Positions 3,455 to 49,676 of a stretch of 64,000 nt of DNA are shown piece after piece. A program made the position numbers and the translations under genes. Numbering within the stretch: position 1 is the first letter of the stretch; each line of letters opens with the position of its first letter. Under the pieces are notes generated by a model, which was not told the origin of the DNA, did not search any database, and was given only the letters and a program-made list of their open reading frames with translations. Source of the DNA: Callorhinchus milii (Eukaryota); contig NW_024704742.1 in assembly GCF_018977255.1 (NCBI RefSeq), forward strand, positions 85,934,001 through 85,998,000, read 5' to 3'.

Positions 3455-3990
3455 GTAGGTGTATCTTATATTCAAATTTAAAAATCATTATATATATCCT
3501 CTAAATAGCTTATAATAAAACTATCTTATATTAATTTTAATTTGTTATATATATGTATAGACAATATATTATCAAAGTATTATATCATCTTATATACGTA
3601 AATTAGCGAGGGTCATGTCTGCAGGTTAAACAGTCAGTGGTTACTGCTGACTACCGTCAATAGTTCAGATAGCATGTTATTATCTGGGACATGAGGATGT
3701 GGGTTCACAGGCCAGGTTGAGCATTAATTTTACAATAAGCATTTGATGTGTGGCAACGCAGTGAAAGTGAGTACAGTAGTTGCTGTTTTAGCTGCTTCAA
3801 CTCCAGCAGCACAGACTCTGGGAATCCCAAGAGCTTTAACCATTGGGAGGCAACTAGATTTTCAATTCAGAAACTTGCTAGAGTTTGTCTGGGGGGTGGG
3901 AGAGGGAGGGGAGTGGGTTGGTGCTGACAGTGATAGGGTTGGTGGGGGAGTTTAGGCGCTGATGGTACTTGATTTGTGTTTGTTCCACAG

Positions 3991-4206
3991 GTCTCCTTGA
4001 ATGTTTTCTTTTGCAAAGCCGGGCCGTGGTTTGAGGACTGTGATCTGGATGGCGACAAGAACGCCGTGTTTCACGATGTGGACGGCTCGGTCACTGGCTA
4101 CCGCGACACGTACGTGAGCAGGTTGGACAATTATCTGGTCCGACATCCGGACTGCAAGGAAGTAACATCGTACAATGGGTCCATTTGCAGCGGAAAGTAC
4201 GCTCAG
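3991..4206 (+). CDS. CEMIP2: CEMIP2 coding exon
   Basis: cacag|GTC..CAG|gtaaa; VSLNVFFCKAGPWFEDCDLDGDKNAVFHDVDGSVTGYRDTYVSRLDNYLVRHPDC...SGKYAQ. Confidence 0.93.
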
Positions 4207-4270
4207 GTAAAGAGAGAGAGGGTCATGGTGAAGGTCGTAGAGTGCTTTCTTATTTACTCAGAGGATCATT

Positions 4271-4660
4271 GTGGAGTCCTGTAGAGTAGTGGTTAGAGCA
4301 CTCGCCTCGCAAGCGAGATGACCCGGGTTTGATTCCTGGATAGGGCGAAACGTTAGACAAGTTTTCTTACTCCACAGGCCTCTGTTTACCGAGCAGTAAA
4401 TAGGAACTTGGTTGTTACTTGATTCGTGGATTTCTCTCTGGAGGTAATAATCTCTTCAAAATAAATCAATAAAATACTAATTTGCTCACTCAATCCACGA
4501 CTGTTTGTGGGACACTGCTGTACGCAATTGGCTGCCGTGTTTTGCCCACAAACTATACAGTCAATTCACTTTACAGTATATTCTGTGAAGCCCTTTGAGA
4601 CGTCTCAATGACGTGATAAGGTGCTATATCAAATGCAAGTATTATTATTGTTACTATTAT
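4271..4660 (+). mobile_element. tRNA-derived SINE (same family)
   Basis: GTGGAGTCCTGTAG head through (TTA)n tail. Confidence 0.88.
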
Positions 4661-5463
4661 CTTGGAAAGAGATGTACCAGAAAGGATAGTTGAGGACAGG
4701 ATCTGGTATATTGTTGGCTCACTGTGGAAGGGCCGTGGCCTATATCCGACACAGTCACTTGTCTCTGAAGAAGGTGGAGGTGATTGATCATTGCTTGAAG
4801 TTCAGTCGGCAATGTTTTATTACAGGATGGCAGCTTCCGACGCAGATAATTGTGTACAGAGCTAGATACAGCAACGACAATAAGTAGGAGTGTTTTTCAA
4901 TGTATAGCTATGGAGATTTGCCCTTGTTGCCCAAGTGACTGCACTTAGCAACGAGAGGAATTTCTCAGCCAAAATATCACTTTGCCTTGATGTGATGCAG
5001 ATGGAACTCGGATTCATTCATTTGTTTGTGTTTATGTGGTTTCCAACAATCTGCAACTTGTTATTGCTGCTAATTTATAAGCAGGGCATATCTAGCTGTA
5101 GTGGCATTCCCTCTTCTTTTGAGGAATTCTTAAATTCATGGAGAAGAAAGCTGTTTCCAGTTATGTCCCACATAACAACAAGCCTTAACTGTGCCAGTGT
5201 TGGGTTTTATTTCAAATGCTGTACCTCTCCTCTGGTCTCCTTTACGTCAGATTGCCAACTAGCATAGCGGCAAGTCAAAGGCAATGTTGATTTGTAGGCA
5301 CTTAGTAACACCTCATGTAGCTACTTACTGTAGTAAGGAAAAGATCACTGCTGGCGTAGTAAGAGATTGGGGCCATCGCTTGAGGCCTGAGAGTGAAAGG
5401 ACGGTGTGTATTCCCACTGCACCACCTGATTCCTGTGATAACCAGTGATTGTTGTCCTAGGTT

Positions 5464-6091
5464 GTCCCCTCAGGCCGCTGAAACACTCATACATGTATTC
5501 GTCACCTCAAGGTTCGACTACGGAAACTCTCTCCTTGTCGGCCTCCCTCACTCTTCCCTCCATAAGCTGCAGATCATCCACAACTCTGCAGTTCATGTCC
5601 TCTCCTGCACCAGGCTCCGTAACCCCATCACTCCACCCTTGTCCGGCTCCACTAGCTCCCCATCCCTCAGAGAATAGAATTCAAAATCCTCATCCTCACT
5701 TTCAAGGCAACCCATGGCATTGCCCCCTCCTACCTGTCTGACCCGCTGACAGCCTATCAACCTGCCCGCTCCCTCCGCTCAGCAGGCACCGGCCTGCTCC
5801 TGGTCTCCTGCCCAACCCGTCCTTCCATTGGCGGTCGGGCTTTCAGCCTCTCTGCCCCCACCCTTTGGAACTCCATCCCACAATTCCTTTGCTTTGCTCC
5901 CTCTCTTGCCTCCTACAAGGCACGACTCAAGACCCTCATTTTTGACCGTACCTTCAGCCGCTCTCCTACCCCCTCTGCCCTCTCTCACTCCAACCCTGCC
6001 CCCCACGCTCGGGTCCTGATCCTTGATTGTTCAAGGCCTTGGGACGTCGTCCCGATGTGAAAGGCGCTTTACAAATGTAATTTTGTTGTTG
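5464..6091 (+). mobile_element. 5'-truncated LINE2 flanked by TAGGTT TSD
   Basis: L2 ORF2 C-terminal peptide AETLIHVFVTSRFDYGNSLLVGLP..KLQIIHNSA, tail GTGAAAGGCGCTTTACAAATGTAATT(TTG)n. Confidence 0.92.
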
Positions 6092-6094
6092 TAG

Positions 6095-6303
6095 GTTTAT
6101 GTGCAAACATGGCGTCCGCAGAACCTAACGATGACCATTGTAAGAGACGAGTATCCCGCCAATCCCATGACCCTGCGGGGCATCAACCAGCGAGCGGACT
6201 TCCAGCAATACCAACCAGTGGTCATGCTGCAGAAAGGCTACACGATTCACTGGAATGGCCGGGCGCCAGAGGAAACCTTTCTATATCTTATCAACTTCGA
6301 TAA
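6095..6303 (+). CDS. CEMIP2: CEMIP2 coding exon (acceptor abuts an L2 tail)
   Basis: gttgtag|GTT..AA|gtaag; VYVQTWRPQNLTMTIVRDEYPANPMTLRGINQRADFQQYQPVVMLQKGYTIHWNGRAPEETFLYLINFD. Confidence 0.92.
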
Positions 6304-6574
6304 GTAAGTAGTCTTAGCTCCAACCTTGGATAGCTCCAGTGGAGGGCAGTAAGGAAAGCTCAACCTGAAAAGGTCAGCACCCAAAATAATAAGAATAATC
6401 CTTGCAGTAATGTCAGCCTGGCTCAATGGTAGCAATTGTAATATTAGTCACTCGTTCCATGGCTGTTTGTGGGACATTACTGCGTGCGATTGGGCTACTG
6501 TGTTTCGTCCCCAGAATACACAGTCAACCCACTCCACAGAAAATCCTGTGAAATGCTTTGAGACATGTCGCCTC

Positions 6575-36300: not shown

Positions 36301-36645
36301 GTACCTCAGGAGAGGAGGGTATGAAAGAAAACTGTGTGGAGAAACATGATGAGAAGAAAAACAATACAGTGAGTTGCTAATTGTCACTTCACGCTCGAAG
36401 CCTTTAATTTAAAAACGATTCCCATAAGACATGACCATAAATCTCCTGAATCATCGACTATTCCAACAATTACATTCAACCCCTGAGATATTATTTTCTT
36501 CATATTCACTTGTTATTCTAATTCTTGGAAAATTGGATTTTTCCTTTTTTAAACAAAATCCACAATTTCAGGAAAAGCAAAAGTCAAAAAGGATTCCATT
36601 TTCTATTCTGACTGATAGAAATAAGTACGGAATAGTAGCACTTAC

Positions 36646-36831
36646 TGTCTGACTCGTCCACTCTCATTCTTGTACCACTTGGCATAAGGGATTGCCATCT
36701 GCACTTCATCATCTTGTACCGGACAAATAGCTCCAGCGCCAGCGCTTTGCGTTCTCGTGCTGTGGAGGTGCAGGGATACATCCCGAACAAAAATTTCCAT
36801 GCATCTTTCCGTATACTGGGATCCACACCAC
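36646..36831 (-). CDS. TBC-domain Rab-GAP, exon 2
   Basis: gtttag|GT..A|gtaag; GVDPSIRKDAWKFLFGMYPCTSTARERKALALELFVRYKMMKCRWQ (TBC RxxxWxxL motif). Confidence 0.92.
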
Positions 36832-39329
36832 CTAAACAAAAAGGGTAAAGTGTATGTATACAGACAGAGAATATATTCAAAATCCCATTGTTGTCTGAAA
36901 ATCTTAACTCTGAGGTGACACGATTCTTAGATTGCTTTTAATTTTTAACAATGGTTGCACTTATATAACTAACAATGTTACAAATTCCTTCAAAATAACA
37001 ACCAGGCACAATCGTCCAGACTGTATTACCAGAGGATTTATTGCCATTGATCCCGAGTTTATAAATTTTATACAACTTAAAGATTTTTTTAATATTAATG
37101 AGGTCTAAAGGGTTATAATTTGAGTAATGTTTCTCTGTGCAGAATAATGGGGTGATTTAAGATCTATTTTCATATTCAATTGCTACACAACACATGATGT
37201 GATTTGAGTTAGTCTATGCAATTCTAAGTGAATAATTGCTTGCCACATGATCATTCCACTCAAAAATCAAAACAAATCATCTCTCTATCCATTACAATAG
37301 TTGCAGATATATCTCTAACTACAAATGAACTGTTGCCTTTTTCCGTTATTCAGCTTAAAAACAGACTACAATTTGGATTTACATTGACTGTACAGTCCAG
37401 AAAGAGGTCATTTGGCCCAACCAGTCCATGTTGATGTTTATATTTCACACAAGTCTCCAGCCACTCTCCCATATCCCGTTATTCCCTTCTTCCTCACGTG
37501 TGTATCTAGCTTCCTCTTAAATACATTTATATTTCTGATCACGGCTTCATGTAGCGAGTTCTACATTCCCACATTCTCACTCTCCTTGGTGCGAAGACGT
37601 TCCTTATAAATTCTCTTTTTAGCACCTTGGGACGTCCTCCCGACGTGAAAAGCACTATACAAATGTAATCTTGTTGTTGTTGATGTTTAGATCCGTTAGT
37701 CCCTATCTTAAACTCGTGTTCTCTAATTACAGATTCTACAACAGTGGGAACAGCCTATTTATAGAACCCTTTCATGATTTTGAACACCTCTATTAGGTAC
37801 CCTCTTGGATGTCTCTTCTCTCACGATTTGATTGACTGATTCTGAATTGACCGTGATTTGAGACAGACATGTAAGTGAGTAGAAGAGGCAAGTTTTCAGT
37901 CCGTGAGTCCCTTGACTAAATCCCCTCTGTAACATCACTCTCTTGAAAATAAAAACACCATGGACCGTCATGATTCCCAGAAGAGAGTGGTGAGTCTGGT
38001 ACATCTCCACATCTGACACTGGCTTAATCTGACACATCAAACACAGCACATGATATCCGCCCAGTCATGTTCACCTCATTAAACGTTTTGTGACATCACC
38101 TTTTACCAGTAATTGTATACCCTTTTGGATAGGAATTGGCATGGTTACTGCTGGGTCAATGTAGTCATGTGGATATCTCACGAAGGTTGCCTTTCATTCT
38201 ACTATAAGGAAGATCAGTCACACTAACGGTGTACGGCAAGACTGAACTATGAAAACACAGTCTGCTTTCATTCGCTCCAAGTCACGAGTAAGCTGTGTGA
38301 ACAGCTGGCAACATTGGACGAAATCATCTCTCCTTATCATAATCCTCTAAATTTGTTTCAGTCACTCTCTCATCTCTGGTTTCAAAGCATTTATGATTCA
38401 GATACAGTACTACAATAGATATTACACAGTCATCTACGACTCACTCAAATATATATTTTACATTGCATTTTTATATTATTTGCTTTTCTTTGGTCAAGTT
38501 TTACAAGTTATTTTCTATCCATTAAGTCCTCCCAGTGCTATGCCTCATTTCTCAGTTAAGACAAGTGACCTGCTCTCAAGTGTGACACCAACGTCAGTTT
38601 ACAGTGACTAGCAAACGTGTGCAATGGCAACCTGAGGGAGATTTTCTGCATGGAAGAAGCACTTTGGCTCTGCTCAGGAATCTACAAAGGGCTGCATATT
38701 TGCTATGTGGAGAATCACCGAACCCACATTCTACCACTGTAATAGATCCATGCTAATTTTCCCTTGCCCAAACTAAAACAAAGGCCAAATGTATCTCAGG
38801 GTAAAGTATATATCCCAAAAATAATATCTTGGGATACAGTATAATGACTGCCAGGATGGTAGAAGGCGAACCAGATGGACCTTGGTCTTTTTGCCTAGCA
38901 AATTCTTATGTTCTTATGTGTTTGAAGGGCAAGTGTTGGTACCTTTAGTTGAACAATTTCCCTGCTCTACCTTTTAGGTACCACACCACAATCTTGGTCA
39001 ATTCAAATTAAATTGTTTCCTTTTCTTCTAGTGAGTATCCTACTTGGACTAGTGACCATGAATATAGAGTTGAATGGTCTCCAAGATGCTGTGTTCAATT
39101 CAACCCTCTGTGGTGGCCTCAGTAGTCCAGTTCTAAGCCAGGTGGGTCCACAGTACTCCAGGGACTACTGATGACAGACCAATCAGCTTGGCTTATTGGC
39201 AAGACTTGGAGGGGCAGTTACTGGGAGCCAGCATTCTTCCCACCCAGCTTGTTAACCTTGCAAACCAAAGCCTTACCGTGTAGGGTTGACAGCTGCAAAA
39301 GCAGCAGAAAGCTTGCCAGGCAATAGACA

Positions 39330-46630: not shown

Positions 46631-47091
46631 TCCAAGCCCAAATCTCGATCTTTTCTTGGCTGCATCGGCTCCCACATCTCCCAGGGGGTCGAACCCACAG
46701 TATATTCCGTGAAGCGCTTCGAGACATTGCGAAGACGTGATAAAGCGCTATATCAAATGTAAGTGTTATTGTAACATCCTCACCCTTTGGCTCTGGGTCT
46801 CTCTCACTGACCCCGATGCTCTCCCTTTTCTCTCTCTGAACCCATCTCTCTCTTTCTCTCCAGCCCTGGTCTCCCTCTGTTCCCCGGGTATCTCCACCCC
46901 CCACAAGCCTGTTCTGCCACTCTATTAGATCAGGGCTGATCTGTACCTCAACTCCATTTAGCTGCCTTTGCCCCATGTCCCTCGTTACCCTTAATTTACA
47001 AAAATCTACCCACCTCAGTCTTGAAAACGTGAATGGAAATTTTTCCTCTCCCCGGTCTGTCCGCCTCGGGACTCTCCCTCTCGATTCTCTT

Positions 47092-48322
47092 TCTCCCCGG
47101 GTCTCTCCCCATCCCCCCCTCTCCCCGGGTCTCTCCCCATCCCCCCCTCTCCCCGGGTCTCTCCCCATCCCCCCCTCTCCCCGGGTCTCTCCCCATCCCC
47201 CCCTCTCCCCGGGTCTCTCCCCATCCCGCCCTCTCCCCGGGTCTCTCCCCATCCCCCCCTCTCCCCGGGTCTCTCCCCATCCCCCCCTCTCCCCGGGTCT
47301 CTCCCCATCCCCCCTCTCCCCGGGTCTCTCCCCATCCCCCCTCTCCCCGGGTCTCTCCCCATCCCCCCCTCTCCCCGGGTCTCTCCCCATCCCCCCCTCG
47401 CCCCGGGTCTCTCCCCATCCCCCCCTCGCCCCGGGTCTCTCCCCATCCCCCCCTCTCCCCGGGTCTCTCCCCATCCCCCCCTCTCCCCACCTTCTCTCCC
47501 CCCCCCTCTCCCCCGGGTCTCTCCCCATCCCCCCCTCTCCCCACCTTCTCTCCCCCCCTCTCCCCGGGTCTCTCCCCATCCCCCCCTCTCCCCGGGTCTC
47601 TCCCCATCCCCCCTCTCCCCGGGTCTCTCCCCATCCCCCCTCGCCCCGGGTCTCTCCCCATCCCCCCCTCGCCCCGGGTCTCTCCCATCCCCCCCTCTCC
47701 CCGGGTCTCTCCCCATCCCCCCTCTCCCCACCTTCTCTCCCCCCCCCTCTCCCCCGGGTCTCTCCCCATCCCCCCCTCTCCCCACCTTCTCTCCCCCCCC
47801 TCTCCCCCGGGTCTCTCCCCATCCCCCTCGCCCCGGGTCTCTCCCCATCCCCCCTCTCCCCGGGTCTCTCCCCATCCCCCCCTCTCCCCACCTTCTCTCC
47901 CCCCCCCTCTCCCCCGGGTCTCTCCCCATCCCCCCTCGCCCCGGGTCTCTCCCCTCCCCCTTTTCCACCGAGCCCCCCTTCTCACCCGGGTCTCCCTCCC
48001 TCTCCCCCCGGGTCACCCTCCCCCTCCCCCCGGGTCTCTCTCCCCCCGGGTCTCTCTCCCCCCGGGTCTCTCTCCCCCCGGGTCACCCTCCCCCCGGGTC
48101 TCTCTCCCCCCGGGTCACCCTCCCCCCGGGTCACCCTCCCCCCGGGTCACCCTCCCCCGGGTCTCTCTCCCCCCGGGTCACCCTCCCCCCGGGTCACCCT
48201 CCCCCCGGGTCTCCCTCTCTCTCTCTCCCCGGGTCTCCCTCTCTCCCCCCGGGTCTCCCTCTCTCCCCCCGGGTCTCTCCCCCCGGGTCTCCCTCCCTCT
48301 CCCCCCGGGTCTCCCTCTCCCT
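47092..48322 (+). repeat. Pyrimidine-rich minisatellite, ~28-bp unit CCCCGGGTCTCTCCCCATCCCCCCCTCT, degrading into ~17-20-bp CCCCCCGGGTC(A/T)C(C/T)CT variants
   Basis: Tandem repeats read directly; period 28 at 47095/47123. Confidence 0.95.
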
Positions 48323-48337
48323 CTCGCGGTCACTGAC

Positions 48338-48635
48338 CTCCTCTGAAGATGAGTTTCCTGAACTGAGACTCTCCCACCAGCCGCCCGTCCGCGTCCAGCA
48401 GGAACCTGAAGGTGTCCAGGTCGAGCAGCGCCCGGGCCCCGGGGCCGCACTTGGCCCCCGCCGCCGCCTCCTCCTCCTCGCCATCGGCCAGCCGGACACA
48501 CAGCCCCTCCCCCGCCGCCACCTCCTCCTCCTCCTGCTGCCGGCTGCAGCTCTGCTGCCCGGGGCCCCGCATCCTGTCCTCCTGCCCGGGACTCGGCTTC
48601 GCCGCCGCCTGGCCCTGCGCCCCTTTCCCCTCCAT
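48338..48635 (-). CDS. TBC-domain Rab-GAP, exon 1
   Basis: ATG at 48635 with an in-frame upstream TGA; low-complexity N-terminus then LDLDTFRFLLDADGRLVGESQFRKLIFRG; G|gtcag donor; all 10 exons sum to 1470 nt (489 aa + stop). Confidence 0.85.
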
Positions 48636-48735
48636 CAGCCTCCCGCTGCCGCCAGCTCAGGCCCCATGGGGTCAGCCTCCGCTCCGCTCCTGCCCCCGCC
48701 AAGCTCTCGGCTCCCAGAAGAGAGTGAGCGGCCCC

Positions 48736-49345
48736 GTCACCATGGCGACCATCACGCACCTCGTCAGCAAGAGGAACGTCACTCAACACGCCCCCCCCGT
48801 CACCATGGCGACCATCACGCACCGCGTCAGCAAGAGAACGTCACTCAACACGCCCCCCCGTCACCATGGCGACCATCACTCCCCTCGTCACCATGGCGAC
48901 CATCACGCACCGCGTCAGCAAGAGGAACGTCACTCAGCACGCCCCCCCGTCACCATGGCGACCATCACTCCCTTCGTCACCATGGCGACCATCACTCATC
49001 TCGTCAGCAAGAGGACCGTCACTCACCCCCCCCCCCGTCACCATGGCGACCATCACTCACCTTGTCAGCAAGAGGACTATAACTCACCTCCCCGTCACCA
49101 TGGCGACCGTCACTCCCCTCGTCACCATGGCGACCGTCACTCCCCTCGTCACCATGGCGACCGTCACTCCCCTCGTCACCATGGCGACCATCACTCACCT
49201 TGTCAGCAAGAGGACCATAACTCACCTCCCCGTCACCATGGCGACCGTCACTCCCCTCGTCACCAATGAGACCGTCACTCACCGCCCCCCCCGTCACCAT
49301 GGCGACCATCACTCACCTCGTCAGCAAGAGGACCGTCACTCACCG
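48736..49345 (+). repeat. Promoter minisatellite, 27-bp unit with palindromic core GTCACCATGGCGAC (13 perfect copies), alternating with GTCAGCAAGAGGAC-type variants
   Basis: Cores start at 48736, 48799, 48860, 48887, 48949, 48976, 49037, 49094, 49121, 49148, 49175, 49232, 49293. Confidence 0.95.
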
Positions 49346-49676
49346 CCCCCCCCCCCCCACCCCCACCCCCGGCACCAGGGAAACCGTCATTCCATTATCC
49401 ACTTTCCCGGTATCATCCACTAAATCAGTGAGGAGATTGTCACCAGAGAGACTGTCACTCACCCCCATTGGAGACCACAGTCTTACCAGGGAACCACAGC
49501 ATTGTCAGTCAGACTGTTAATTCACAACAACTTACACTTACACAGGACACTTCATTTGAAATGCCTTAAATTTTAATTGGCAGTTTTAAAATTCTGATAT
49601 CACTGGGCATTTTGAGGCATTTCCCCGAACGTTAAACTGTATTAACTGTGTCCTCACCTCAGGCACTGACAGCTTC

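Follow-up and report, generated by a model that had tools for sequence, protein, structure and literature searches.

Retroposons have been described in splice acceptors before. The canine merle SINE-Cf sits at the intron 10/exon 11 boundary of PMEL, as set out in the available part of the report (PMC7349775), and de novo Alu insertions into 3' splice sites of NF1 lead to exon skipping and disease, according to the accessible text of that study (PMC3219598). In mammals, transposable elements are depleted near acceptors (PMC3088655, available part). Insertions at acceptors are normally purged or disease-causing. Among elements of the L2 clade, the inserts of ZfL2-1 and ZfL2-2 show 5' truncation, a short target-site duplication (TSD; peak at 3-5 bp), and extra 5' nucleotides, in the portion of the report at hand (PMC4245944). 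Here we analyze an acceptor of the hyaluronidase gene CEMIP2 in Callorhinchus milii, which lies in a stretch of 64,000 nucleotides (contig NW_024704742.1 of assembly GCF_018977255.1, positions 85,934,001 to 85,998,000), hereafter called the window. An earlier note on this DNA proposed that a LINE inserted exactly at an intron/exon junction and rebuilt its 3' splice site. The main features are collected in Table 1, and positions are those of the window unless a contig is named.

Table 1. Features of the CEMIP2 acceptor and of the LINE inserted at it (window positions)
Feature	Position	Strand	Basis
Upstream CEMIP2 coding exon, donor CAG/GTAAAG	3991..4206	+	protein mapping and RNA contigs
Region of the old acceptor: CTGAT (A 5429) as branch candidate, additional AG 5444-5445, TAG 5458-5460	5426..5460	+	sequence; organism B piece
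Upstream copy of the 6-nt TSD, TAG/GTT	5458..5463	+	sequence; organism B contigs
Additional dinucleotide GT at the 5' junction, matching neither LINE family nor target	5464..5465	+	family alignment
5'-truncated LINE (end of ORF2, 3' UTR, and tail), sense to CEMIP2	5466..6091	+	comparison with 29 genomic copies
TGA reached if 5461 were used	5479..5481	+	in silico translation
LINE tail, all 35 nt as in the family majority; carries TTTAC (A 6071) as branch candidate and the U-rich tract TTTTGTTGTTG	6057..6091	+	family alignment
Downstream copy of the TSD; AG 6093-6094 is the acceptor in use	6092..6097	+	sequence; RNA contigs
CEMIP2 coding exon VYVQTW...INFD, Pfam CEMIP_X	6095..6303	+	homology, Pfam, protein mapping

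The frame that opens at 6095 matches the human cell surface hyaluronidase (8c6i_A 914-983, E 7.6e-34) and is 100% identical to two C. milii protein records, P0001 and P0002, which both read KYAQ/VYVQ across the exon junction. Mapping of P0002 on the window and the 80 kb upstream of it yields 21 introns, 4207-6094 among them. Two CEMIP-family paralogues, neighbours on contig C26 near 5.22 and 5.27 Mb, share 64% and 57% identity with the 6095 exon, and both carry an AG where this codon boundary lies, which indicates that the intron predates the insertion and is not a product of the LINE. By this comparison, the boundary, which is of phase 0, is ancient and far older than the element beside it. 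Intron gain from a transposable element is also ruled out by the donor, located 1.25 kb upstream of the LINE, and by the acceptor of the paralogues at the same place. In one run (X9), the spliced contig continues into the intron upstream of the 3991 exon (window 3923-3991), where contigs of X5, X7, and X11 join the previous exon; it represents either a retained intron end or another upstream acceptor.

Two further observations concern other parts of the window. On the minus strand, positions 36590-36940 contain a frame, GGVDPSIRKDAWKFLFGMYP, which we take to be TBC-domain-like and to belong to an opposite-strand gene. Long, GC-rich, strongly skewed tandem repeats with open frames of several hundred codons occupy 47000-49400.

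The acceptor in use was identified from spliced contigs. Four of the ten RNA-like runs listed, none of them on record as RNA, were compared at 98% likeness, and in all four, drawn from two studies, a single contig connects 4206 with 6095 across an intron with GT..AG ends. Thus the copy of the hexamer that follows the LINE tail serves as the acceptor of this intron, and both the proposed in-frame exon start immediately after the tail and the rebuilding of the downstream copy as an acceptor are borne out, the former by homology as well. Back to 5466, everything upstream of the used TAG, including its tract, is LINE-derived. The same note had assigned to the tail both the U-rich tract and a branch candidate. 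The tract does lie in the tail; the branch point remains a candidate, TTTAC with A 6071, and no other yUnAy match occurs within 50 nt upstream of the 6095 acceptor.

Similarity of the insert to all 29 other genomic copies used for comparison, which were picked for their likeness to the CEMIP2 copy, starts at 5466-5469, and the insert is 628 nt long between the hexamers, its tail GTAATTTTGTTGTTG ending at 6091. From the majority of these copies it differs by 55 substitutions over 626 aligned sites (about 8-9% divergence). Its 5' part (5465-5674) shares 72% identity over 60 aa with the C-terminal part of a 577-aa frame, which in turn matches RVT_1 (E 8e-37). When tested in this way, the insert is read as derived from a reverse transcriptase-encoding non-LTR retrotransposon, with an intact 3' tail and a truncated 5' end. 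Following the earlier note, we tentatively place the element in the L2 clade, in preference to CR1 or Rex1/Babar, from ORF2 motifs and from the short-repeat tail with a short TSD. The exact 24-nt core of the tail occurs 1,694 times in the genome. Selection on the tail of the CEMIP2 copy is suggested by its 35 unchanged nucleotides, which are equally perfect in two of the 24 other copies with a recognizable tail (five of the 29, without a clear tail, were left out).

The hexamer TAGGTT stands on both sides of this 5'-truncated insert, as had been proposed and as the family alignment confirms. How often such repeats arise by chance was estimated from 70 copies of the family taken in genome order, of which 21 with unclear 5' ends were dropped and 49 scored, and from 2,352 mismatched pairs of flanks. 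Junction repeats of at least 6 nt occur in 5 of the 49 copies versus 3.1% of the mismatched pairs, those of at least 5 nt in 10 copies versus 7.3%, and those of 4-7 nt in 19 copies versus 19.4%. Taken on the sequence alone, the 6-nt repeat is therefore only moderately above chance, at about threefold odds.

Stronger evidence comes from a related species, organism B, represented by three runs from two samples (share 0.07), which were compared alongside run X1 of C. milii itself. In all three runs, a contig of 1,657-1,658 nt aligns with 6092-6355 (22 other letters and one gap). Its depths (43.8, 21.4, and 19.1 in X18, X19, and X20, respectively) equal those of the difference rows at 4788-5383, in the unique intron upstream, and the last upstream piece of the contig extends from 5304 to 5457/5458 according to the from_end values, which are counts of alignment columns calibrated on the contig of the first exon (they fit the rows at 4137, 4233, and 4237). 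Since joints are placed leftmost (the RNA joint, for instance, is given as 4204 to 6093), a step from 5457 to 6092 is a skip of the insert and one hexamer, as expected from a single TAGGTT. Organism B thus shows the signature of an empty site, a deduction made from the ends of the pieces and the equal depths and not from the letters of the junction. In C. milii run X1, contigs 4631-5526 and 6065-6436 are without differences and bridge both LINE junctions.

The empty site, which the earlier note had proposed to look for in relatives, argues that the hexamer is a real target-site duplication spanning the splice junction, and that the upstream acceptor is the ancestral one. The opposite reading is that the hexamer match is fortuitous, either because the LINE landed just upstream of an AG without duplicating anything or because organism B lost the element. 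The 3.1% of mismatched flank pairs with a repeat of this length and the abundance of the same repeat family in organism B speak in its favour, but the organism B pieces stop and restart precisely on the two hexamers, and the exact loss of an insert together with one hexamer is a rare event. We consider a chance match barely credible, the least probable of the alternatives weighed here.

Another reading makes the duplication 15 nt long (TTGTTGTCCTAGGTT), so that part of the present tract would be copied from the host, with two bases substituted since, and the LINE would have supplied only the branch region. Positions 5449-5463 and 6083-6097 do agree at 13 of 15 bases. However, the downstream sequence is exactly the minimal tail of the family, with 1,694 occurrences genome-wide, family members have junction repeats of 4-7 nt, and two adjacent changes would have happened to restore the tail. 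A duplication of this length is accordingly very unlikely, and we retain the 6-nt duplication.

In the upstream exon (72 codons), the listed differences between organism B and C. milii include 12 at third positions. Compared with the 8-9% divergence of the CEMIP2 copy from its family, this suggests, as a rough inference, that the insertion is old and happened soon after organism B had split off.

We consider it highly probable that the LINE inserted across the AG/G of this acceptor and duplicated TAGGTT, that splicing goes to the downstream copy with the tract, and likely also the branch point, taken from the tail, and that the upstream copy is likely inert. In such an event, the endonuclease would have cut three bases before the junction, the second strand would have been cut three bases into the exon, and the last T of the LINE tail may have primed on the target. 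The allele could have been tolerated because the tail and TAG together would form an acceptor of average strength, with an AG-free zone of 29 nt, directly before an exon that keeps its own donor. The old copy would fail exon definition, because the 843 nt that follow it offer no good donor in the first 300.

Two acceptor models, both crude, were used to compare the sites: one trained on the 19 other acceptors of CEMIP2 alone, after the intron 196-1871, which probably contains a small exon, had been dropped, and one based on frequency tables. In the gene-trained model (true sites 1.5-13.1, leave-one-out), 7.6 is obtained for the new site and 3.8 for the old one; with the frequency table (true sites -1.3 to 14.1), the values are 8.7 and 5.3, respectively. 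In both models the old acceptor falls outside the top 12 of the 111 AGs of the intron. The stretch free of AG is 13 nt before the old site versus the 29 nt before the new one, and the branch candidates lie at -32 (CTGAT) and -24 (TTTAC), respectively. Up to 300 nt from 5461, no donor scores above 3.1, which is close to the lower end of the range of 20 true donors (2.2-12.7), and the old acceptor would have to define an exon of 843 nt. Within the LINE, an AG at 5474 (CCCCTCAG/G) scores higher than the old acceptor by either model; splicing to it would keep the LINE ORF in frame over 67 codons until a stop is reached.

The old copy was also suggested to be one half of a productive/unproductive switch, through which part of the CEMIP2 message would be sent to nonsense-mediated decay (NMD) in some tissue or condition. 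Much of the premise stands: the organism B contig and the sequence agree that the upstream copy is the ancestral acceptor still reading TAG/G, it has a yUnAy candidate, its scores are within the range of true CEMIP2 acceptors, and in silico its use adds 634 nt and reads VVPSGR before TGA at 5479, within 7 codons and far upstream of later junctions. The switch itself finds no such backing. An unbranched contig crosses from 4206 to 6095 in all four RNA-like runs and no joint of 4206 to 5461 is listed in them, which argues weakly, as rare forms are lost from contigs and NMD lowers the share of its targets in steady-state RNA. Only one contig, with a depth of 2.6 in X7, spans the old acceptor (5301-5493), and it is unspliced. 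In addition to the lower scores, the extra AG, and the poor donors, several decoy AGs, that at 5474 among them, score above the old acceptor, and the retention of 6/6 bases of the old hexamer has a probability of about 0.6 at about 8% divergence without selection. We regard residual use of the old acceptor as improbable, though less so than either a chance match or a 15-nt duplication, and read the upstream copy as a probably inactive remnant.

Two other roles for the old site or the insert were rejected. A recursive splice site AG/GT is not supported, as CAG/GTTGTC scores 0.2 with a donor matrix versus 2.2-12.7 for the 20 true donors. A cassette poison exon inside the LINE would have to use one of six best donors that all give stops, and the best donor at most 300 nt from 5461 is the one scoring 3.1.

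Whether the CEMIP2 case is singular bears on how such landings arise. A target preference for AG is ruled out, since YAG follows within 12 nt of the tail core in 17 of 70 unselected copies versus a 26% background. By rough arithmetic, which assumes 200,000 acceptors, a 6-nt target, one strand, and 991 Mb, about 0.06% of random insertions would land in this manner, that is, about one among the 1,694 copies; hence chance landing and tolerance are enough.

The exact tail core followed by YAG has 456 matches in the genome. Our survey covered 29 other sites with the exact tail and YAGG (30 of 34 were fetched) and 89 distinct sites with the tail and YAG (90 of the 456, nearly all on contig C1). No recognizable coding exon was found behind these 118 other sites in a low-sensitivity test that would miss the DCLK3-like case described below: frames of at least 25 or at least 22 aa only were considered, so that short exons, exons lacking a Pfam match, and other tail variants escape it. 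Among the 26 and 75 peptides of the survey there was no Pfam match over the cut-off and one weak match below it. A scan with a tail profile over 54 acceptor or exon-start regions of CEMIP2, its paralogues, and the DCLK3-like gene found the tail at the AG only at 6095 and at the DCLK3-like site, and about 50 and 100 nt upstream of the acceptor in two further regions. Farther upstream in CEMIP2, 6,790 nt before the window begins, lies an acceptor that is preceded, at a distance of about 50 nt, by the end of a SINE-type tail.

In the DCX-kinase (DCLK3-like) gene (G000:C2:14249590-14249670), a short retroposon tail stands between two TTGACAGGT copies, which span the AG/GT exon boundary at G000:C2:14249662; the tail fragment is a weak match to the profile (E 0.013). 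Judged by its letters, this gene appears to have a second tail-in-acceptor insertion in the genome. Another copy of the family (L061:1355-1525) has the TSD TAGGA and an acceptor-like 5' flank (tctctcctag/GA); no Pfam match was found behind it, where the sequence runs into more repeat.

A sense tail would bring a ready-made branch point and U-rich tract, so that landings on AG/G could rebuild the acceptor and escape purging. As a tentative proposal, which we hold at somewhat less than even chances, such events are recurrent in cartilaginous fishes, where tens to hundreds of constitutive exons would owe their present acceptors to LINE or SINE tails. Of the proposed cases, CEMIP2 and the DCLK3-like gene are documented at the sequence level. 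If widespread in chimaeras and sharks, the process would be a measurable route of splice-signal turnover with intron positions fixed. The CEMIP2 locus itself, for which a relative has the empty site and spliced RNA is at hand, is a dated natural case in which the upstream signals of a constitutive acceptor were swapped for those of a retroposon and the protein was left unchanged, and its old and new acceptors offer a simple before/after pair for minigenes.

A literature search, supplements aside, found no report of the CEMIP2 locus or of sense LINE tails serving as acceptors in cartilaginous fishes. With ZfL2-1 and ZfL2-2, the CEMIP2 LINE shares 5' truncation, a short TSD (6 versus 3-5 bp), and extra 5' bases; the available part of that report does not describe inserts at splice junctions, whereas the CEMIP2 LINE is located at one (PMC4245944). 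The NF1 Alu insertions, as far as presented in the accessible text, hit the same target, the AG or the tract of an acceptor, but the CEMIP2 insertion was tolerated and its exon is included (PMC3219598). The closest parallel is the merle SINE, described in the part of the report at hand as a retroposon in an acceptor whose TSD holds the acceptor AG and whose tail forms the tract, with normal splicing still possible at the downstream copy, as in CEMIP2 (PMC7349775). According to the same text, the merle element is an antisense SINE with poly(T) and a 15-bp TSD, is recent and polymorphic, and shows length-dependent use of a cryptic acceptor and a phenotype (PMC7349775). In contrast, CEMIP2 has a 6-bp TSD and a sense LINE that contributes its (TTG)n tail and probably the branch point as well; divergence of the copy from its family is about 9%, and one acceptor alone is seen in use. 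Thus the event of a retroposon entering an acceptor is known from merle, and what differs here is a sense LINE tail that, with its likely branch point, serves an old, apparently fixed, constitutive exon.
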